A DNA stretch of 64,000 bases, taken from an uncultured Rivularia sp. GTDB taxonomy: Bacteria > Cyanobacteriota > Cyanobacteriia > Cyanobacteriales > Nostocaceae. Below the pieces are notes generated by a model, which had not been told where the DNA came from, did no database searches, and saw only the letters and a list, made by a program, of their open reading frames with translations. Below, one piece after another: positions 25,684 to 40,361 of the stretch. The translations under genes and the position numbers were made by a program. The number at the start of each line of letters is the position of its first letter. The first letter of the stretch is position 1. The stretch is from contig OY762007.1 of assembly GCA_963665115.1 (NCBI GenBank), positions 2,304,001-2,368,000 of the forward strand, written 5' to 3'.

Positions 25684-27372
25684 ATGACGCAAAAACGATC
25701 ATCTAAAAAATTAGTCACAGCATTATTGCAATCAATCGACCCAAAACAGATTGCAGACGAGGACGTGCGTCAAACGGTAGAAGTATTACTCAACTTAATA
25801 GAACAGCTAAATGTAAAAATCAAAGAATTAGAAGAAGAAAATCAAAAACTACGTGATGAAAACAACCGCTTAAAAGGTGAACAAGGTAAACCAGACATCA
25901 AAGCGAATAAAAACAAAGGGTTTAAGAAAAACTATTCATCAGAAAAAGAACGAAAAATAGCAAAAGAACACAGTAAAGCAAGTAAAAACGAGTCTATCAA
26001 GATAAACCGAGAAGAGATTGTAGTTTACCCACAAGAACAATTACCAGCAGACGCACAGTTCAAGGGTTATGAGGAAGTAGTAGTCCAAGACATTTTACTT
26101 AAGCCAGATAACATACTGTTCCGCAAGCAAAAATACTACTCACCAGAAACAGGAAAAACTTATTTAGCGGAACTACCAACAGGTTACGAAGGTGAATTTG
26201 GTCCAGGAGTAAAAGCTTTGGTCATGAGTCTATATTATGGTGGAAACATGACCCAAGGGAAGTTATTAGAATTTTTAGAAGATATTGGTATCTCGATTAG
26301 TGCAGGAACAATATCAAATTTATTAATTAAAAACCAAGAATATTTTGAAGCTGAATACGAAGAAGTATACAAGGAAGGGTTAGCCAGCAGTCCTTGGCAA
26401 CACTTTGACCAAACAGGTGCGCGTGTTGCAGGAGTGAACCATACAACAAATGTGATTTGTAACCCCTTGTACACAATTTACCAAACAACGCGATACAAAG
26501 ACCGTTTGACTGTATTAAAAGTATTTCAAAACACAACCGAACTCTCCTTTGTTCTCAACGAGATGACCTATGAACTTTTGGAGACTTTTAAAGTTCCAAT
26601 TAAGTGGGTTAATAAACTAAAATTACTATCTCAACAGAAGGCTTTTACCGAAACTGAGTTTAATTTTTTGATTGGTGAGTACTTAAGTAGACTTGGTTCT
26701 CAACACCGTTCTCGCATATATGAATCGGCAGCAATTGCTTTTTATCATCAGCAATCAACTGTACCAGTAATTACAACTCTAGTATGCGATGATGCTCCGC
26801 AGTTCAAGTTAATAACATCGGATTTGGCTCTTTGTTGGGTGCATGAAGGACGACATTATAAGAAATTAAGTCCGCTTATACCTTGCCATCAAAAACTTTT
26901 AGATAATTTTCTAGAAAGATTCTGGGAATATTACAGAAAATTATTATCTTATCGAGATTCTCCAAGTTGGGATAAAGCTCACGAACTAGAAATGGAATTT
27001 TGGACACTTTTTACAGAAAAAAGTGGTTATCAACAGTTAGATGAGCGAAAACGATTAACTACTTTGAAAGTAAACGAGTTGCTTCTCGTGTTGGAGCATC
27101 CAGAATTACTATTGCATAACAACCCTGCCGAATTAGCTGCTAGGACTATGGTACAACGACGTAACATCAGTTACGCAACCCAGACAAAACAAGGCACAAA
27201 AGCGTGGGATGTTTTTATGTCCCTTGTTGACACTACTCGTAAGTTGGGTATCAGTTTTTATGAGTATATGCGTGACCGCATTTCTCAAGTTGAAAATATT
27301 CCATCTTTGGGGACAATTATTCGGAAGAAATCTTCTTCTAATTCCTATGGTTGGTCATGGATGCCTCAATAA
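25684..27372 (+). CDS. IS66-family DDE transposase
   Basis: N-terminal coiled coil; HFDQTG, VCDDA, CWVHEGRH, HNNPAELAAR. Confidence 0.88.
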   Translation: MTQKRSSKKLVTALLQSIDPKQIADEDVRQTVEVLLNLIEQLNVKIKELEEENQKLRDENNRLKGEQGKPDIKANKNKGFKKNYSSEKERKIAKEHSKASKNESIKINREEIVVYPQEQLPADAQFKGYEEVVVQDILLKPDNILFRKQKYYSPETGKTYLAELPTGYEGEFGPGVKALVMSLYYGGNMTQGKLLEFLEDIGISISAGTISNLLIKNQEYFEAEYEEVYKEGLASSPWQHFDQTGARVAGVNHTTNVICNPLYTIYQTTRYKDRLTVLKVFQNTTELSFVLNEMTYELLETFKVPIKWVNKLKLLSQQKAFTETEFNFLIGEYLSRLGSQHRSRIYESAAIAFYHQQSTVPVITTLVCDDAPQFKLITSDLALCWVHEGRHYKKLSPLIPCHQKLLDNFLERFWEYYRKLLSYRDSPSWDKAHELEMEFWTLFTEKSGYQQLDERKRLTTLKVNELLLVLEHPELLLHNNPAELAARTMVQRRNISYATQTKQGTKAWDVFMSLVDTTRKLGISFYEYMRDRISQVENIPSLGTIIRKKSSSNSYGWSWMPQ

Positions 27373-31500: not shown

Positions 31501-32052
31501 CCGAATGAAAACAGCGATATTACCGCGAATGCTTTTGAAGGTGAAGGTGGTAATATTAAAATCACCGCTTCTGGTATATTCGGTATTCAAATTCGAGAAA
31601 ATCTAACTAAAAAAATTAGCGATATCAGTGCGAGTTCCGAGTTAGGTATAGACGGTACCGTTGAAATTAATACTCCCGATCTAAACCCTAATAATGAATT
31701 AGCCGAGTTACCATCTATACCTATTTACAGTCAATTAGCCCAAGGCTGCTATAGTCCAGGTTATGCTCAAAATCAATTTTTTGTAGTTGGGCGCGGTGGT
31801 TTACCGCCTTTACCTGAAGATTATCTTACACCTTCGGCAGTGCGAGTTGACTGGATAAATCCTCAACAAAATAGCAAAAACAATTTGCCTAATACAGATA
31901 TTGAAGTCAAAACAACTACAGAAAAACCCAAACGTATTGTAGAAGCTACGGGATGGATAACCAACGATAAAGGTGAAATTATATTCACAGCAAATGCACC
32001 TGTAGCTACAGCAGATAGTTCTATGCAGCAAGCTCAAAACTGTGAATTTTAA
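28564..32052 (+). CDS. Filamentous-haemagglutinin (TpsA-like) protein 2, intact
   Basis: Signal peptide, TPS domain, GNAGxIxI beta-helix-type repeats, C-terminal GRGGLP..EATGW domain. Confidence 0.92.
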
Positions 32053-32198
32053 AGAAAGTGCTGGCGTTAAATCAACAACACCTGTTCGCAAAATCTCCGA
32101 ATCGAAACTTCCAAAAAATAATTTATCCTGCCGTAGAAAGTATCTTGCTCCCTGGATGCCTCAAGCTAGCTTTCCGCGCTCGCACTATCCAATCTGCG

Positions 32199-32321
32199 AC
32201 TTCACCACATAAGTTATGCGGGGGATAAGTAGTGGGAGCCGGAAAACTCGCTCGTCATCTCCAGGGAGCGAGACGCTCCCACTACAAATGTATTACCCAG
32301 CCTTCATTAATGTGGTGAAGT
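32199..32321. mobile_element. MITE-like element containing a REP pair
   Basis: 12-bp IR ACTTCACCACAT/ATGTGGTGAAGT around GTAGTGGGAGC..GCTCCCACTAC; right half recurs at ~59437-59526. Confidence 0.65.
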
Positions 32322-32322
32322 A

Positions 32323-32433
32323 CTAGTACCGCTTCGCGGAAGTAAGAAGTAAGAAGTAAGAAGTAATAAGTTTGATTTTCTAGTCTTTTCAGCCATTTTT
32401 AATGGTTGCCTTATTTACGCCGATTTGTACTAG
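32323..32433. mobile_element. CTAG-ended MITE-like element with internal heptamer repeats
   Basis: CTAGTAC...GTACTAG ends; (GAAGTAA)n inside. Confidence 0.5.
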
Positions 32434-32462
32434 ATTGAATATTTTGTAATTTGGAAGTCTCT

Positions 32463-32921
32463 TCATGCTTGCGATTTGTTTTGATTTCTGGTGGAAAGCC
32501 CCATCGACTTAAGCAAACGAGTAATGTGGTAGTTACTAAAACTGATGCCTAATTCTTTTGCAAGATGTTTGTTTAACCATTGTGCCGTCCAACGTTCAAA
32601 CGCATAACCGTACTCTCGCGGACTATTAGTTACAAGTTCTTTCAAACGTTGAGTATACTGTTCGTTGACGACTTTTGGTCTTCCAATCGGGGAATCATTC
32701 CACTTATAAAACTGACCTGTTTTTACGATACAAATCCAGCATCGTGCAGCTTCTTGAGAGCAGCCTAATTTTTTGCATATTTGTGCCTGTGATTCACCAG
32801 CGTCTGCAAGTAACATGATGTGAATACGACGACGAAATTCTGGACGTAAATCATGCTCAAGATTTTTTTGCAATAACTGACGTTGGCAAGATGTTAAGAA
32901 TAAACTTTGAGCGACTTTCAT
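32463..32921 (-). CDS. Stand-alone IS630-like HTH protein (no DDE domain)
   Basis: RRRIHIMLLADAG..GRPK..SPREYGY..RWTAQWL; stops before any catalytic domain. Confidence 0.8.
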   Translation of the reverse strand: MKVAQSLFLTSCQRQLLQKNLEHDLRPEFRRRIHIMLLADAGESQAQICKKLGCSQEAARCWICIVKTGQFYKWNDSPIGRPKVVNEQYTQRLKELVTNSPREYGYAFERWTAQWLNKHLAKELGISFSNYHITRLLKSMGLSTRNQNKSQA

Positions 32922-33060
32922 TGTTTCTCCCTGGAATACTTCGATCCAATAACTGATTTAGGACTTTTGTTTATATAAAAAGGTAATTAATGTTGAATAC
33001 AGATATGTACCCAACCTTAAGTAATACGAAAGTTCTATTCTCGTTATCAGATGTGATTAC

Positions 33061-33093
33061 TTAGTTACTGCGTCGCTCAAACAAGTTTTTCGC
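33061..33093 (-). promoter_or_regulatory. Bipartite motif GCGAAAAAC-N12-CGCAGTAACTAA upstream of the HTH gene
   Basis: Matches the copy at 35006-35038 at 20 of 21 arm positions, same spacing. Confidence 0.6.
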
Positions 33094-33197
33094 TAATTAC
33101 AGCCTAAAAATCTTTTTCTCTTTAAAAGGAGAGGCTTGTATCCTTGGCTAAGGTTCGCAGTAAGCGATACATCATCTACTACGAACCTGTTAATTTT

Positions 33198-34127
33198 TTA
33201 AATCACAAAATATTCGCTGAGGCTTGCTTCTCCTAAAGCTATTTTGAGACTAAACCGCTCTCCAGGTTCGCCACTTAAATCTAACTTAATATGCTGATTC
33301 GATTGTTCTGTAGTTGTATTTATTATTGCTTGTTCGTACTCGTCAAACAGGATTATTTGCAAGTTTGCAGGTAAATAGTTTTGACTTAAGCTAGGTTTGA
33401 GTTCTATAAGAATATTAGTATTTGACTTTGATTCTGTGGTGATGGTAACAATCAAAGCTATTAATTCTTTGTGAGTTCCCAATTCTAAAAGTTTGCAGCG
33501 CTTCAAATTAGCTGCTTTAGATTTGCCTCTGAAAGCTAAAGCTGGCTGAGCGGCTCGTTCACCCAAAATTTCTACAGACTCCCAACCTGTTTCAAAAATA
33601 TTATTAAACCATTGACTGAGGTTCGCTAATGGTCTAAGTTTATGCAAATATGAGGGTAAAGCAAAAAGTGATTCTAGATCGTTTAGACTTAAATCGACTA
33701 TTGCTGCTGTATTTGGCTTAAATCCTCGTAATATAGCTTCTTTTTGCTTCTCATCAATTTCTACAACTACATAGCCAATCCTTTCCAGACCAACTGAAGG
33801 CGGAATCTCACAACTTAAAGCTCCCTTTTTAACAGGACGACATTCTAAAATACCTTTACCAGTAATCCATAAATCGGCTACGTCTTCAGTTAATCGTATC
33901 GAAGAGTTCCAACTATCTCCGGCTGTAATATTAGTGGAAATACCGATAATACGCAAATAATTATTAACAGCGCATACAGCAAGGGTATTTAGATAAACTT
34001 GTTGTGCCTTATTCGAGATTGGGTTAGGTTGCTCGTTAGCAAATTGCCGCGCGATGTGTAATATTTCTGTTGTTAAGGGTATCGGAATCGACCAATCCTC
34101 ATTTGAAAATTGGTTATTTGTATTCAT
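33198..34127 (-). CDS. DUF1822-family protein
   Basis: AQQVYLNTLAVCAVNNYL, LECRPV, RIGYVVV, LSQWFNNIFETGW, GERFSLKI. Confidence 0.85.
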   Translation of the reverse strand: MNTNNQFSNEDWSIPIPLTTEILHIARQFANEQPNPISNKAQQVYLNTLAVCAVNNYLRIIGISTNITAGDSWNSSIRLTEDVADLWITGKGILECRPVKKGALSCEIPPSVGLERIGYVVVEIDEKQKEAILRGFKPNTAAIVDLSLNDLESLFALPSYLHKLRPLANLSQWFNNIFETGWESVEILGERAAQPALAFRGKSKAANLKRCKLLELGTHKELIALIVTITTESKSNTNILIELKPSLSQNYLPANLQIILFDEYEQAIINTTTEQSNQHIKLDLSGEPGERFSLKIALGEASLSEYFVI

Positions 34128-34139
34128 GGTGCTTGTTTT

Positions 34140-34820
34140 TTAAGTATGTTTAGCGCTGCTAGGAAGAGTAGTTGAACCTTCAATATAACCTTGGGAAAAA
34201 CCGAATTCCCGCAGCAAAGGCAAGCATCTACGGTTGTAAAATTTGGGTAAATCTTTTGCTTCCTGTGGATTTAGGTTAAATTCTGCCGCAATAGTTTTCC
34301 AGGAAAGCGTATCTGGAGGAAGCCGCCTTAGAATTAAAGCTTGAGCGTTAATTTCCGGGCGTTTTCGGAAGCAAATACTGCTTAGTCGGTTGTCTGAATC
34401 TTTTTGCACCCATAGGATAGTTTTTTCCCAGATTTCCATAGCTGGTTGAATATCTGGAGAGGCAACTATATCATCTATCGGGTTATTTACTCCTTGTTCT
34501 GTTTGTTTTGCGATAAGAAATCGTCGTTGTTGTCTATATTTACCATCTCGCATTCTCCTCAATCGCTTTTTAAGTTCATCATCAAGCCAAACAATCGGAC
34601 CTTTGATATCCGGATTGTATTCTTCTAGATGTTCGCAACAATACTCCCACATTTCTTGGAGAGCATCATTATAGTACGATGTATGTTCTTTCCAAAGCTT
34701 GCCAGATTTCATTACTAACAGATGCACCTTAGCCAACACTTGCTGACGCTCCAAGCTTTGGGGTGGATATTCACAGGCAGTAGTAATAAGTTGGCGGAGT
34801 TTTAAATCTAGCTCGTTCAT
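34140..34820 (-). CDS. Divergent sigma-70/ECF-like factor
   Basis: Resembles cyanobacterial sigma-like proteins found next to DUF1822 (YYNDALQEMW..YNP..W; SWKTIAAEF HTH; FYNRRCLPLLR). Confidence 0.65.
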   Translation of the reverse strand: MNELDLKLRQLITTACEYPPQSLERQQVLAKVHLLVMKSGKLWKEHTSYYNDALQEMWEYCCEHLEEYNPDIKGPIVWLDDELKKRLRRMRDGKYRQQRRFLIAKQTEQGVNNPIDDIVASPDIQPAMEIWEKTILWVQKDSDNRLSSICFRKRPEINAQALILRRLPPDTLSWKTIAAEFNLNPQEAKDLPKFYNRRCLPLLREFGFSQGYIEGSTTLPSSAKHT

Positions 34821-35005
34821 AGAATTATATACGAAAATGTTTTACATTACCCTTAAAAAGTGACGTATTAAAAAATACAGAAACTGCCAATTCAGAGTTT
34901 GTAATGACACTTATTGAAAATACACTTTCGTATATTATTATTCCGCGCTAGCTTAAAGAACGATATCTATAATGGACTCTTTTTTATCCTCACTACTACC
35001 TTTGT

Positions 35006-35038
35006 TTAGTTACTACGATTAACATAGAGGTTTTTCGC
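35006..35038 (-). promoter_or_regulatory. Bipartite motif GCGAAAAAC-N12-CGTAGTAACTAA upstream of the sigma-like gene
   Basis: Second copy of the motif at 33061-33093. Confidence 0.6.
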
Positions 35039-35183
35039 AGATTTTTGTTAATTATTTTTTAATTGGGGATTGGTGTTTGGATAATTATTTCAGTGGTAAG
35101 TATGCTCAAGTCTCGATAAAAATCACTGAAATAGTTAGCATATAGGGATTTCTACACTCAATGGTTAAGATTATTAATTACTT

Positions 35184-35463
35184 CCTTCCCGCTCTATAAT
35201 TACCTATCTCTCTTGTCTTGAAAAGTTGTTCTCGAAGAGATTGCCTCCGGCTCACATGGGGGAAACCACGCCACTTCTCTCAACGCGCTTATCCCGCGCA
35301 CGAGAGTGGCTCCCCAAAACGGACACCTTATGTCCAATAGCCCTATGTCCTCCGGACAGGCTAAGCTAACAGGCATAGCCTTCGGCAACGGACACGCACC
35401 GCTAACGCTGCGCTCTCTGCGTCTAGTAAAGTTTTATTATACGTAATCATAAAGCCCGGAAAG
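35184..35463. mobile_element. Degenerate MITE-like element with GC-rich nested repeat fragments
   Basis: Imperfect IR CCTTCCCGCTCTATAATTAC / GTAATCATAAAGCCCGGAAAGG. Confidence 0.45.
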
Positions 35464-35636
35464 GAGTAGTATCAATATTAAAGAAAGTTTCAAAGTCGAA
35501 AATAGACGTTGTTTGATGGATAAGATGTAGTAGTGTTTATGCGTTCACCGCAAGCTGTTCTGCAAGGCAATGTGGGGCAGGGATTATATTTACCAGATTC
35601 TTTATAATTCATGCTGTAAAATATTTTTTTAAGATA

Positions 35637-36845
35637 ATGAGACTTAAAGCATTTAATCATATAACAGGCTTTTTTCAGGAGAAAACTGTTGACTTTGAAG
35701 AAGAAAATCTATCTAAATGTCTTATTGGGAGACATCCAAATTGTGATTTTATTATTAATAGTCCTGAAGTAAGTCGGGTACATGGTATTATTTTGTATCA
35801 ACATGAAAATTATTATTATATTGACCTTGCCAGTACCGATGCCTCTCGCATTAATAATCAAACTATTTTCGTAAATCAAAGTTCTCTTTTGCAATTAGAT
35901 GACGTAATTCGGATTGGGAATTTTGTTGTTTTCCTGGAATTTGATAACACAAATTTGGATTTCGACAGCGATATTTTTTTCAATTCAGAAACACCGATCG
36001 CTCAAACTCCAATTCAACAGCAGCCTCAGCAGGGAGAATTTATAGTTAGATGCTCTAATATTATTCAAGAAACAGATAATGTCAAAACATTTTGTTTGAT
36101 TGCAGAACCGCCTATTTTATTTAACGGTATATCATTTAACTATAAACCGGGGCAGTTTACGATGTTAGACTTAGAAATTGGGGATAAACGAATAAAACGT
36201 CCTTACTTTATTTCTTCAAGTCCTTCACGGCCTTATAACTTAGAAATAACTGTTAAGCGCTTTTCTCCATCAACTTTTCAACCAGATTTAACTTTAGGCT
36301 TAGTTGCTAATTGGTTGTACGATTATTTAAAAGTTGGAGATAAGCTTAAAATAAGTCCGCCAATGGGCGATTTCAATTATTTTGAAAATTCTTATAAGAA
36401 ACTTTTATTTATCTGTTCTGATATCGGGATTACACCTTTGATGTCTATGTCTCGTTGGCTTTGCGATACTAATACCGATTTTTCGGTAATTCTTATATAC
36501 AGTGCCCGCACGCAAAAAGACATTATCTTCCGAGAAGAGTTAGAATTGATGGCTTTAAGATATCCTAATTTCAAGTTAGCGATTAATTTAACTAGTCAAG
36601 ACTTTGATTTAAGTTGGTCTGGATATAGGGGCAGATTGAATGAGACAATGCTATCAGAAATCGCTCCCGACTTGAAAGAACGTGTTGCCTATGTTTGCGG
36701 ATCTGAAAGTTTTATTGAAAGCGTTAAAATGACGTTAGAAGAGCTACAATTCCCAATGCATAATTATTATCCAGAAAGTTTTATATCGAAAGGTACTAAA
36801 CCCGCTTTAACAATAAAGGTAAAGGGTAATAAGTTTATATTTTGA
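35637..36845 (+). CDS. FHA domain + FAD/NAD-binding (ferredoxin-reductase-like) protein
   Basis: IGRHP..VSRVHG FHA; YKPGQF, RPYFISS, IGITP, YVCG. Confidence 0.85.
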   Translation: MRLKAFNHITGFFQEKTVDFEEENLSKCLIGRHPNCDFIINSPEVSRVHGIILYQHENYYYIDLASTDASRINNQTIFVNQSSLLQLDDVIRIGNFVVFLEFDNTNLDFDSDIFFNSETPIAQTPIQQQPQQGEFIVRCSNIIQETDNVKTFCLIAEPPILFNGISFNYKPGQFTMLDLEIGDKRIKRPYFISSSPSRPYNLEITVKRFSPSTFQPDLTLGLVANWLYDYLKVGDKLKISPPMGDFNYFENSYKKLLFICSDIGITPLMSMSRWLCDTNTDFSVILIYSARTQKDIIFREELELMALRYPNFKLAINLTSQDFDLSWSGYRGRLNETMLSEIAPDLKERVAYVCGSESFIESVKMTLEELQFPMHNYYPESFISKGTKPALTIKVKGNKFIF

Positions 36846-37046: not shown

Positions 37047-39350
37047 ATGAGAAAATTAGTAGTGTTGAAACTTGATGGTGATTTGCGATCGCAAGTGCGA
37101 GTCACGTTAGAAATTGGTTACGAAGGGGCACGTCCAATTACGGAGGTTGCTTGTACCTTACCTGCCATGCCGCAGATGGTAAAAGCAATTGATGAATGGT
37201 ACTCGCTAAGCGGTAGTTTAAGTCAATTTACCCGTATTAAGGTTAATAAAATCGTTTATGGCTCTCTGTCCGAAAATAGGCGAGATTGCTATAAAAAAGC
37301 CTGCGAGTTACGTAATTATCTGAATGAATGGCTGATGTGCGATTCGTTTCGTCCGATTCGTGAAAAGTGGCTGAAATATTTGATGCCATCGGATGAAATA
37401 CGAGTATTAATTAGCACGAATAATCTACAGCTTAAAAAACTTCCCTGGCATTTATGGGATTTGGTCGATCGCGATTATCCCAAAGCTGAAATTACTTTGA
37501 GTGCTTATAATTCAGATCGAATACAGGTGCCGCAGACATCTATCTATGGAAAGAAAATTAAGATTTTAGCTATTTTAGGTAACAGCGATGGAATTGATGT
37601 CAGACAAGATAGAGAGTTGTTAGAAAATTTAAAAAATGCGGAAACAACTTTTTTAGTACAACCTCAACGACAAGAAATAAACGAACAGCTATGGAATCAA
37701 AATTGGAATATTTTATTTTTTGCCGGTCATAGTCAGACTGAAGACAATACGGGTAGAATCTATATTAATCAAGAAGATAGCCTGACAATTGCAGAACTTA
37801 GGTATGCTTTAAAAAATGCTGTTAATAACGGTTTGCAGTTAGCAATTTTTAATTCTTGCGATGGATTGGGATTGGTGAGCGAGCTACAAGATTTGTGTAT
37901 TGGGCAAATTATTGTCATGAAGGAACCAGTACCGGATTTTGTTGCTCAACAATTCTTAAAGTATTTTCTGACAACTTTTTCTGCTGGAGAGTCTATATAT
38001 ATTGCGGCTCGTAAAGCTAGAGAAAAATTACAAGGTTTAGAAGCAGAATATCCTGGTGCTAGCTGGCTGCCGATAATATGCGAACATTCCACAATTAAAC
38101 CGATGCAGTGGAAGCTAAGGGTTAATTCTCTAAAGAATTGCTTTAAAACATTGGTTTTAGCCAGTTTGTTAATGACAAGTTTAGTCGTGGGAGTACGGCG
38201 ACTGGGATTTCTGGAAAAATGGGAGCTACAGAATTACGATTTATTAATGCGATCGCGTCCCGATGAAGGACCTTCGGAAAGGTTATTGGTGGTGGGAATT
38301 AGAGAAACAGATTTTCAGCTACCCGAACAAAAAGATAGAAAAGGGTCTTTAGCTGATGGTGCATTACACAAGTTGTTACAAAAGCTTGAACCTCATCAAC
38401 CCAGAGCGATCGGGTTGGATATCTTTCGCGATTTTCCGGTAGACTCCGAACAACAACAATTAAAAACTCAATTAATAAAGAGCGATCGTTTTTTTGCAAT
38501 ATGTCATGTAGGGGAACCGAACGGAGAATCTCAGGGAATAGCACCTCCTCCAGAAATACCGGAACAGCGTCTTGGTTTCAGTAACGTTCTGCTTGATGAT
38601 GATGGTATTTTACGTCGTTACATTCTATCAATGGATGTAAGGAGTAGCTCGAATTGTCCTACTACCTGGTCTTTTGGTTTTCAATTGGCACTACATTATT
38701 TAAAAGATGAAGGAATTGCACCAAAATTTAACCAGGGAAATTGGCAATTAGGTGATGTTGTTTTTACACGTTTAAAACAACTTAATGGTGGCTATCAAAC
38801 AGCAGATACTTGGGGAAATCAGATATTACTTAATTATCGTTCCTATCGTTCTCCCAACCAAATTACCGATATAGTCTCTCTCGAAGATGTCTTAGCGGGT
38901 AGGCTGGCACCGGAACAAATCAAAGATAAGATTATTATTATTGGTGTAATGACTTCAACTTCCAGCGACCATTTTCGCACTCCTTACAGCGAGAAATTAC
39001 CACCATCTCAACAATACACTCCAGGAGCAATAGTACACGCTCAAATAGCTAGCCAGATACTGAATTCAGTGTTAGATAAACGTCCTTTGTTATCGGCAAT
39101 ATCACTTTGGGGAGAAATATTGTGGATTGGGACTTGGAGTTTTATTGGAGGAATTTTAGCTTTGCGGATTCGTTCGTTACGTTTATTAGTAGGTGCTAAT
39201 TTAATTGCTATTATAATTATATACGGAGCCTGCCTTGTTCTATTTATCAAAGGTGTTTGGTTGCCACTAATTCCGTCAAAATTAACACTGTTGTCAACTA
39301 CAGGATGTTTGGTAATTGTTTATAAATATAAACCACAACTGCGACTTTAA
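37047..39350 (+). CDS. CHAT-like protease + CHASE2 transmembrane receptor
   Basis: LPWHLWD, FFAGHS, IFNSCDG; one TM, CHASE2 (IGLDIFRD, DDDGILRR, PGAIVHAQ), three C-terminal TMs. Confidence 0.9.
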   Translation: MRKLVVLKLDGDLRSQVRVTLEIGYEGARPITEVACTLPAMPQMVKAIDEWYSLSGSLSQFTRIKVNKIVYGSLSENRRDCYKKACELRNYLNEWLMCDSFRPIREKWLKYLMPSDEIRVLISTNNLQLKKLPWHLWDLVDRDYPKAEITLSAYNSDRIQVPQTSIYGKKIKILAILGNSDGIDVRQDRELLENLKNAETTFLVQPQRQEINEQLWNQNWNILFFAGHSQTEDNTGRIYINQEDSLTIAELRYALKNAVNNGLQLAIFNSCDGLGLVSELQDLCIGQIIVMKEPVPDFVAQQFLKYFLTTFSAGESIYIAARKAREKLQGLEAEYPGASWLPIICEHSTIKPMQWKLRVNSLKNCFKTLVLASLLMTSLVVGVRRLGFLEKWELQNYDLLMRSRPDEGPSERLLVVGIRETDFQLPEQKDRKGSLADGALHKLLQKLEPHQPRAIGLDIFRDFPVDSEQQQLKTQLIKSDRFFAICHVGEPNGESQGIAPPPEIPEQRLGFSNVLLDDDGILRRYILSMDVRSSSNCPTTWSFGFQLALHYLKDEGIAPKFNQGNWQLGDVVFTRLKQLNGGYQTADTWGNQILLNYRSYRSPNQITDIVSLEDVLAGRLAPEQIKDKIIIIGVMTSTSSDHFRTPYSEKLPPSQQYTPGAIVHAQIASQILNSVLDKRPLLSAISLWGEILWIGTWSFIGGILALRIRSLRLLVGANLIAIIIIYGACLVLFIKGVWLPLIPSKLTLLSTTGCLVIVYKYKPQLRL

Positions 39351-39494
39351 GATAGTTCCAACTTACGGTTGATATCGCTCGGAGTAAAATTTTTATACAA
39401 TGTGCAGGGAATAGAGATGTACGCTTATTTTTTTGAAGCGTAGAACGCATACTATACCTTTCAGAATATGCACAATAGCCCTATGTAATTGATT

Positions 39495-40361
39495 ATGCTT
39501 AAAAACCAATACTATCAGCAATTATTAAAGTTTTTATTTGTAACAAATTTAATATTTATAAATTCCATACCCGTTACTGCTCAAAAAACAAATCCATCTA
39601 CAAATAGAAAAACAAATAATACATCCCAACCAAATAAAAAGAAACCAGAAAATAGAAATAACTTTAATCGAAAGCGTCATCAAGAAACACCCCCACGCAG
39701 TAGAGTCCGTGGGAACTCTGTATACTTTAGACAACCCCAAAGGCAAGGAACACCACAAGGTACGAGAGCAGCAGGAAGTCGTAATAGTTGTCCAATAGCA
39801 GAAGAAATGCCACTGAGCGCTTTAGTACCGATTACGAAAAAAGCAGATGGAAGAGAATTACGTTGGGGGTTAACAACGAAAGAAAATCCAACATTTTGGT
39901 TTTACGTTCCCCATAAATTAAAATCTATAAAAAATGCTAAATTTTCTTTACGAAATCGGCGAAACAACACGATTTACGAAAAAGAATTACAGCTGGCTGA
40001 TACACCGGGATTAATTAGCGTTTCCCTTCCAGCTAATGCACTATCTTTAAAAGTTGGTGAATGGTATCAATATTATTTATTTATGGATATTGACTGTAAT
40101 TTAAACAGATCTCGTAAAGAATTCGCTCAAGCATGGGTGAAAAGAGAAGCAATTGCTTCTGGTTTTGAATCTAAATTGGAAAGAATATCTCCACGTCAGC
40201 GAGGATTATTCTACGCAAAAAATGGTATTTGGTATGATGCGATGGTATCTTTTGCCAAACTTAAATATGCATCTGGAACAAACTCAGAGTGGATGCAAAT
40301 GTTAGACTCGATCGGTTTAAGTGAATTTTCTCAGATACCAGTAATTGATTGCTGTAAGTAA
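39495..40361 (+). CDS. DUF928-domain exported protein
   Basis: Signal peptide; AGSRNSC..LSALVP, PTFWFYVP, NGIWYDA. Confidence 0.88.
   Translation: MLKNQYYQQLLKFLFVTNLIFINSIPVTAQKTNPSTNRKTNNTSQPNKKKPENRNNFNRKRHQETPPRSRVRGNSVYFRQPQRQGTPQGTRAAGSRNSCPIAEEMPLSALVPITKKADGRELRWGLTTKENPTFWFYVPHKLKSIKNAKFSLRNRRNNTIYEKELQLADTPGLISVSLPANALSLKVGEWYQYYLFMDIDCNLNRSRKEFAQAWVKREAIASGFESKLERISPRQRGLFYAKNGIWYDAMVSFAKLKYASGTNSEWMQMLDSIGLSEFSQIPVIDCCK

Follow-up and report, generated by a model that had tools for sequence, protein, structure and literature searches.

The 64,000-nucleotide stretch of an uncultured Rivularia sp. analyzed here (contig OY762007.1; hereafter the window) carries two copies of a bipartite DNA motif on its minus strand. 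We consider it probable that this motif represents the −35/−10 cognate promoter of an uncharacterised, protease-gated sigma factor of the extracytoplasmic function (ECF) type. One copy precedes the gene for this 226-residue sigma-like protein (34140–34820, minus strand), and the other precedes a gene for a helix-turn-helix (HTH) protein of 152 residues. The gene set to which the sigma gene belongs was described in 2021, and no promoter was given for it.

The bipartite motif and its conservation

On the minus strand, the copy at 33061–33093 reads GCGAAAAAC-TTGTTTGAGCGA-CGCAGTAACTAA and is oriented toward the HTH gene, the ATG of which lies 172 nucleotides (nt) downstream of its first base; the copy at 35006–35038 reads GCGAAAAAC-CTCTATGTTAAT-CGTAGTAACTAA and is oriented toward the sigma gene, with 218 nt from its first base to the ATG. 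An initial annotation of this DNA had described both copies, and its coordinates, the 20 of 21 identical arm bases and the identical 12-nt spacing are all borne out. The arms that it delimited were too long, however, because a third, non-orthologous class of sites in relatives reads GCGAAATTT..N..CGTAGTAAATAC and thereby limits the common element. What the sites have in common is the core GCGAAA(A)-N14/15-CGYAGTAA(C), which the relatives refine to GCGAAAA-N14-CGY(A)GTAAC. The spacers had been taken as unrelated; they are not entirely so, as 4 of their 12 bases are identical, and T/G positions within the spacer are enriched among 42 distinct sites.

For the sigma gene's own promoter, the predicted −35 element GCGAAAA occupies 35032–35038 (minus strand) and is invariant in 15/15 aligned upstream regions from the same genus, while the predicted −10 element CGTAGTAAC at 35009–35017 (minus strand) is nearly invariant in these 15 regions and variable by clade in distant relatives; judged from the position of these elements, transcription should start near 35002 on the minus strand. 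Upstream of the HTH gene, alignment of the close ortholog loci places the predicted −35 element GCGAAAA of the site, which 19/19 of them possess, at 33087–33093 and the predicted −10 element CGCAGTAAC at 33064–33072 (both minus strand), with a predicted start near 33057 on that strand.

The motif is rare in the genome. When up to three mismatches were allowed, the window yielded these two matches alone (shuffle mean 0.01; two or more matches in 0 of 100 shuffles). The exact pattern GCGAAA-N15-CGYAGTAA, with spacings of 13–17, occurs twice in the 8.69-Mb genome, at precisely these sites, and the next-best genomic matches at spacing 12 carry 3 and 4 mismatches. Beyond the two sites, exact, one-mismatch, position weight matrix and relaxed genome scans gave nothing above reversed or other-spacing controls, so that the genome-wide regulon expected in the initial annotation did not materialize. 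We predict instead a direct regulon that is small, local and lineage-dependent, consisting of two promoters in this organism. A Sigma70-type promoter scan returned 7 sites, compared with 10.3 in shuffles, none of which overlaps the motif, and Rfam has no match within window positions 32000–36000.

Within the genus, 16 of 17 loci have the motif in front of the sigma gene. All 19 loci of close HTH orthologs have it in front of the HTH gene, exactly in 17 cases and with 1 or 2 mismatches in one case each, and it is absent from 11/11 loci of more distant HTH homologs. Alignments of the upstream regions reveal invariant arms and drifting flanks. Sites of the third class face the opposite way, in front of an operon for a 4Fe-4S membrane protein, an FHA-domain oxidoreductase, a CHAT/CHASE2 protein and a DUF928 protein. 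The exact core has 47 matches in 20 of 27 genus genomes, compared with 4 for the reversed pattern. Two of the seven genomes lacking a match are incomplete (68% and 84%), and the six of the seven that were searched for homologs contain distant paralogs only. Furthermore, the site stays with the HTH gene where inserted genes part it from the sigma gene, and in one genome (G021) the divergent operon has relocated by about 25 kb with the site still attached. In another genome of this comparison, a small VanZ-like gene, on a contig apart from the cassette, is preceded by an exact core site (L062 5594–6192; G006:C109).

For the wider sigma family, we took the best 80 of 574 GTDB loci (relatives 44–89% identical) and dropped two for short flanks, leaving 78. 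In 58 of the 78 loci, the relaxed pattern GCGAAA[AT]-N17-19-RTRA occurs in the 600 nt that precede the sigma gene (reversed control, 0/78; background, 46 of 6290 open reading frames (ORFs)), a descriptive count, as the relaxed patterns were drawn from the very loci that were counted and kin are not independent. The −35 element GCGAAAA is constant across the family, and the −10 element varies by clade, from CGTAGTAAC in this genus to CGTGTAAC in several genera, C(G/C)TATAAC in Lyngbya-like loci and TTGATAAC in Nostoc; many family sites read GCGAAA-N17-TGTA. Among 223 intergenic GCGAAA words, CG stands at one fixed offset in 74 and at every other offset in at most 18, and 66 of the 70 intergenic sites with a downstream ORF point into a gene on the same strand, for which the baseline is 60%. 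Comparing the −10 variants by eye with the sigma residues showed that clades differ, and that self and target sites can differ within one genome; the quick-version tree behind the clade names was used for naming only.

In the order as a whole, the sigma profile matches 89 of 201 genomes at E ≤ 1e-30, and the close clade (E < 1e-99) is present in 13. The strict pattern has 22 matches in nine of these 13 genomes, of which 15, spread over 7 genomes, are no more than 12 kb from the sigma gene; the other 188 genomes have seven single matches. ECF sigma factors usually autoregulate (PMC7826278), and the autoregulation that had been proposed for this protein is supported by the site upstream of its gene across the family and by the co-occurrence of the motif with this sigma clade. 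Genes downstream of the sites in other lineages include exosortase-VIT operons, LuxR- and AraC-type regulators and RTX-repeat proteins; three distal matches in genome G185 are intergenic and lie 52–179 nt upstream of genes for GGDEF, tetratricopeptide repeat (TPR) and RTX-repeat proteins, and in two Nostoc loci the site precedes an HTH homolog. Secreted or surface proteins and second regulators are recurring types. At one locus (L143 7565–9349), a variant site faces a phage-tail-sheath gene cluster adjoining the sigma gene, possibly a contractile injection system under the control of this sigma factor.

Several further features of the motif and its surroundings were noted. In nine of ten pairs of back-to-back copies (family loci L093–L141), the −35 elements are 32–37 nt apart (e.g., L093 9647/9684; L071 8802/8835), a conserved divergent-promoter geometry. 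The 5′ leader of the sigma gene contains an inverted pair, TACGAAAGTGT ... ACATTTTCGTA (window 34919–34939 and 34823–34843), whose second arm directly precedes the ATG and which is conserved with variable spacing in 15/15 genus sequences; it could fold into an RNA helix that covers the start region, or provide two operator half-sites, and an inspection for compensatory changes found none, the folding z-score is −1.38 and Rfam gave no match. Both intergenic regions hold mosaic, multi-copy dispersed repeats (about 35170–35450 and 33110–33190), of which the genome contains dozens of partial copies. Two related intergenic elements that begin with TAGCGAAAAAC, 600 nt apart and with a different right arm (G000:C1 6169514–6169560 and 6170110–6170160), are probably a repeat rather than the bipartite motif.

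The sigma-like protein and its predicted protease-controlled partner

Structure modelling predicts that the 226-residue protein is a divergent ECF-type sigma factor, with a sigma2 domain at about residues 1–100 and a sigma4-like domain at about residues 120–214. The model (predicted local distance difference test (pLDDT) 83.7; predicted template modelling score 0.45) consists of two helical domains connected by a loose linker. The top 8 of 48,161 chains compared with it are ECF sigma2 domains (best Z 10.1, root-mean-square deviation (rmsd) 2.0, 82 aligned residues); in the whole-protein model, the sigma4 domain of SigL aligns to residues 116–214 (Z 6.0, rmsd 3.9), and E. coli sigmaE aligns over residues 1–214 (Z 11.5), with an rmsd of 11.8 owing to domain placement. 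Named relatives occur in Rivularia, Calothrix, Moorena, Lyngbya, Nostoc and other filamentous cyanobacteria. Sigma70_r2 is matched weakly by 19 of 73 homologs at E ≤ 0.1, and a paralog found in the genome by tblastn, 25% identical to the protein, matches TIGR02937 at E 1.6e-9. A search of the family profile against PDB sequences returned only spurious helical and integrase matches.

Five invariant residues (D52, Q55, W58, Y68 and W78) resemble ECF regions 2.2–2.4. The segment KDLPKFYNRxC, which is expected to read the −35 element, shows strong conservation across most of the family and is different in the Nostoc clade. Since that clade nevertheless keeps the same −35 sequence, a residue code for −35 recognition is not established by this comparison. 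The proposal that the motif is the −35/−10 promoter of an alternative, ECF-type sigma factor is still a prediction, and it draws its support from the fixed spacing, the asymmetry, the orientation toward start codons and the sigma2-plus-sigma4 fold.

The sigma gene is followed on the same strand by a gene for a DUF1822 protein of 309 residues (33198–34127, minus strand; Pfam E 3.6e-58). The model of this protein comprises an N-terminal PD-(D/E)xK-like domain, a disordered linker (residues 190–203) and a C-terminal beta-sandwich. Residues 37–165 match I-Ssp6803I (Z 8.8, rmsd 3.1, 112 aligned residues) and Hjc (Z 8.1), and this restriction-endonuclease-like fold carries a conserved D85 together with E95-C96-R97 where ExK is usual. 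The linker carries an aromatic–Arg pair, F199-R200 in this protein; F/W199 is found in 50 and R200 in 45 of 56 aligned sequences.

A complex between the sigma-like and the DUF1822 protein was predicted with a score of 0.80, compared with 0.00 for the best control; this mark, roughly valid for our own alignments, is attained by 116 of the 157 solved pairs and by 2 of the 215 mismatched ones. Contact agreement between runs was at least 79%, and the pLDDT of the partner was at least 79. In the predicted interface, DUF1822 residues 11–162 lie over sigma residues 48–63 (region 2.2) and 192–210 (a sigma4 helix), which, going by the models, are the expected polymerase- and −35-binding faces. The complex prediction supports binding, as distinct from inhibition. 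Because the partner is predicted to bind over the faces of the sigma factor that contact polymerase and DNA, DUF1822 is likely an anti-sigma factor.

The putative activating protease is a CHAT (caspase-like)–transmembrane–CHASE2 protein of 767 residues (37047–39350, plus strand; CHAT E 1.4e-11, CHASE2 E 8.5e-58). GH and SC catalytic motifs are located near residues 227 and 270, the transmembrane segment spans residues 365–383, and a conserved region of about 120 residues precedes the CHAT match; the His and Cys motifs are retained in all 32 filtered CHAT partners of the family. The HetF model matches this protein at E 3.5e-9, below the cut-off. In the system of HetF, a membrane CHAT protease, PatU3 is cut after Arg117 in TNYR/S (PMC9457339). 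By analogy with that cleavage, R200 of DUF1822 is a candidate CHAT cut site.

Taken together, we envision the following route. The sigma factor would transcribe its own sigma–DUF1822 operon and the downstream HTH gene from GCGAAAA-N14-CGYAGTAAC, with DUF1822 keeping it inactive. CHASE2 would sense a periplasmic signal and thereby activate the cytoplasmic CHAT protease, which would cut DUF1822, perhaps after R200, and lead to its removal. The freed sigma factor would then activate these promoters in a positive loop, which would renew the inhibitor as well, and the HTH protein may relay the signal. This predicted target (32463–32921, minus strand) resembles the N-terminus of IS630 transposases without the DDE domain (matches to HTH_23/28/33 and a partial IS630 match), has orthologs with 81–96% identity in 18 further genomes of the genus, and is likely a second-tier regulator.

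The proposed promoter weighed against other explanations

A number of observations weigh against a cognate sigma factor–promoter pair, in addition to the dependence of the family count on its own loci. The 226-residue protein has no sigma match in Pfam or NCBIfam, and Foldseek returned nothing for its model at E ≤ 0.001, yet sigma-factor entries make up 16 of the first 17 rows. The relaxed site is absent from 20 of the 78 family loci, a whole subclade among them. In the order-wide scan, the strict reversed control has 20 matches in 16 of 201 genomes, four of which have two; several carrier genomes share site sequences with the family loci; and 7 of the 10 distal strict matches examined fall inside ORFs, where they probably reflect chance. 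Within the genus, one genome (G008) lacks the self site, another (G004) has a single match that lies inside an ORF, and a third (G024) keeps two perfect sites although most of its sigma gene is gone. The CHAT operon of the genome studied here has no upstream motif. Finally, cleavage at R200 would by itself leave the predicted interface intact, since this uses only DUF1822 residues 11–162. Csx30 poses the same puzzle of a cut outside the interface, for which further degradation has been proposed (PMC10028731).

One alternative explanation accepts the promoter and the sigma factor, but has DUF1822 act as a partner or effector and the CHAT protease act on itself or on another substrate; it leaves the reading of the motif unchanged, and we regard it as rather unlikely. 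In its favor are the nuclease-like fold with its I-Ssp6803I and Hjc matches and conserved D85, E95, C96 and R97, the position of R200 outside the predicted interface, and the autopeptidase activation proposed by Kaur et al. (PMC8195603). However, the Z-scores behind this fold are near the level of common arrangements, Foldseek found nothing for the DUF1822 model at E ≤ 0.001, and the predicted interface buries region 2.2 and the sigma4 helix, the very faces that an inhibitor would block.

Two other explanations take the motif away from this sigma factor, and we give little credence to either of them. The motif could be the operator of a conventional transcription factor, most simply of the 152-residue HTH protein, which would then regulate itself and control the sigma operon; the copy directly upstream of the HTH gene in 19/19 close orthologs would fit this view, and the back-to-back copies 32–37 nt apart, inverted in 9 of 10 pairs, could suit a dimer. 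Yet the motif is asymmetric and strand-oriented, most copies are solitary, and it is missing from the 11 loci whose HTH homologs are more distant. Moreover, genomes G185 (five strict matches) and G073 (two) have no match to the HTH query, while three of the five genomes searched had homologs at 56–66%.

A comparably improbable variant retains the promoter but assigns it to a different cyanobacterial sigma factor, one of wider distribution, by which the whole cassette would be switched on. The persistence of two perfect sites in G024 after loss of its sigma gene points in this direction, as does the GTAAC core, which we take to resemble the −10 elements of group-3 sigma factors. A general sigma factor should leave many sites, however, and this genome has two; the 188 genomes outside the close sigma clade are at background only, the eight other DUF1822 cassettes of the genome have no site, and the HTH site of G024 has decayed, with two mismatches at otherwise conserved positions. 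That the two copies are functionless remnants of a duplication or dispersed repeat, as the multi-copy repeats nearby in both intergenic regions and the 71% identity of the two copies over 38 nt might suggest, has a negligible chance of being true and is largely refuted by the conservation pattern, with arms retained and flanks and spacer drifting across three site classes and many genera, and with two copies only genome-wide.

Related systems and the surrounding cassettes

The EACC2-caspase neighborhoods described by Kaur et al. in 2021 (PMC8195603) comprise the same set of genes, namely a constant N-terminal domain and a caspase (CHAT) fused to CHASE2/transmembrane segments, beside an ECF sigma factor and DUF1822. 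The word "promoter" occurs 0 times in the main text of that paper, and GCGAAA 0 times in the supplements searched. DUF1822 is labelled there as a TPR protein; in contrast, our model has no TPRs and shows an alpha/beta domain plus a beta-sandwich in a predicted sigma binder. No report of this promoter was found in the literature searched, in which few subscription papers were covered, and the part of the ECF classification supplement that was examined contains neither DUF1822 nor GCGAAA.

Three known systems invite comparison. The first is one that the proposed module would resemble in its mode of action, although homology to HetZ was not found: in Anabaena PCC 7120, sigmaHetZ is likewise a divergent ECF sigma factor missed by Pfam and co-transcribed with its inhibitor, in the sigmaHetZ–PatU3–HetF system (PMC13342950). 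Its promoter, TCCGGA-N16/17-TGnA, is similar in geometry to the many family sites of the form GCGAAA-N17-TGTA but differs in the −35 element, and HetZ, with about 400 residues, three insertions and 546 sites (PMC13342950), contrasts with the 226 residues and 2–5 sites of the present sigma factor. The Rivularia genome has its own hetZ elsewhere, with NF037963 matching three other loci. Membership of our protein in the HetZ family is not supported: NF037963/4/5 are unmatched, hhalign of the sigma factor with HetZ gives P 0.09, and there is no TCCGGA (DIF1) −35 element. A profile comparison of DUF1822 with PatU was not significant (P 0.012 over 52 columns), an ESM Atlas lead to PatU at 0.83 is weak, and HetZ itself has no PDB sequence match.

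In the CASP-sigma/Csx30/Csx29 system of type III-E CRISPR, the inhibitor of the sigma factor is cut by a CHAT protease outside the N-terminal domain with which it binds sigma, and copies of the CASP-sigma motif lie mostly within the locus, as they do here; the Csx29 system is triggered by RNA through Cas7-11, whereas the sensor here is a CHASE2 domain (PMC10028731). Promoters of sigmaI combine an A-tract with CGWA (PMC10575876), and the present sites have an A-tract in the −35 element followed by CGTA/CGCA (AAAA-N14-CGTA in this genus). Unlike in sigmaI promoters, the CG is lost in Nostoc-clade sites (TTGATAAC) and RTAA is kept. SigI6 is among the fold matches of the sigma model (Z 7.3), ECF sigma2 domains score higher, and an RsgI-type partner is absent here.

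If the cognate promoter is confirmed, a protease-controlled signalling module gains its first DNA target. The promoter sequence makes a common cyanobacterial cassette testable with reporters, and the same reporter could be used to screen for the CHASE2 signal. It would also show whether protease-released sigma factors, hitherto shown in heterocyst fate and type III-E CRISPR, serve these organisms as a general means of signalling. With only two sites in 8.7 Mb of genome, the sigma factor is also a candidate for use as an orthogonal part in the engineering of cyanobacteria. A far broader proposition, which we put forward only tentatively and consider somewhat doubtful, is that filamentous cyanobacteria carry orthogonal caspase-gated sigma switches (nine DUF1822 cassettes here), each with a private promoter, this motif being one clade's code; DUF1822 would then be a new nuclease-fold anti-sigma factor destroyed after a conserved aromatic–Arg cut, and sigmaHetZ–PatU–HetF a very distant, specialised offshoot.

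Clustering of the proteins encoded in 68 family loci gave 68 sigma, 66 DUF1822 and 60 CHAT members. Eight further DUF1822 genes are present in the genome, most of them adjoining a sigma-like and a CHAT gene, and none of these cassettes has this motif upstream. Further cassettes on G000:C1 are located near 329750, 1208400, 1244900, 1275700, 1513200, 1531100, 2879700, 8060300 and 8093900; their sigma-like genes encode 215–520 residues, and CHASE2, periplasmic-binding or nSTAND1 domains occur in the CHAT partners that were scanned. A conserved sequence of its own precedes the paralog near 2880300 in seven relatives.

Of the divergent operon, which in many relatives has the third motif copy that is missing here, the window retains the FHA-FAD/NAD oxidoreductase gene (35637–36845, plus strand). 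The encoded protein has 402 residues and lacks the C-terminal 2Fe-2S domain of its 471-residue orthologs; the gene for the 4Fe-4S membrane protein has been lost, with a 5′ relic near 35461–35523, and the divergent site is absent as well. A paralogous pair of the divergent-operon genes, without the motif, lies at G000:C1:35066–38182. Downstream of the CHAT–CHASE2 gene, a DUF928 protein (39489–40361, plus strand; Pfam E 1.8e-46) is a recurrent member of the cassette, with a 22-member cluster in the 68 loci. Elsewhere in the window (25684–27372), an IS66-family transposase gene is situated between two parts of a two-partner secretion (TPS; filamentous haemagglutinin-like) gene region.

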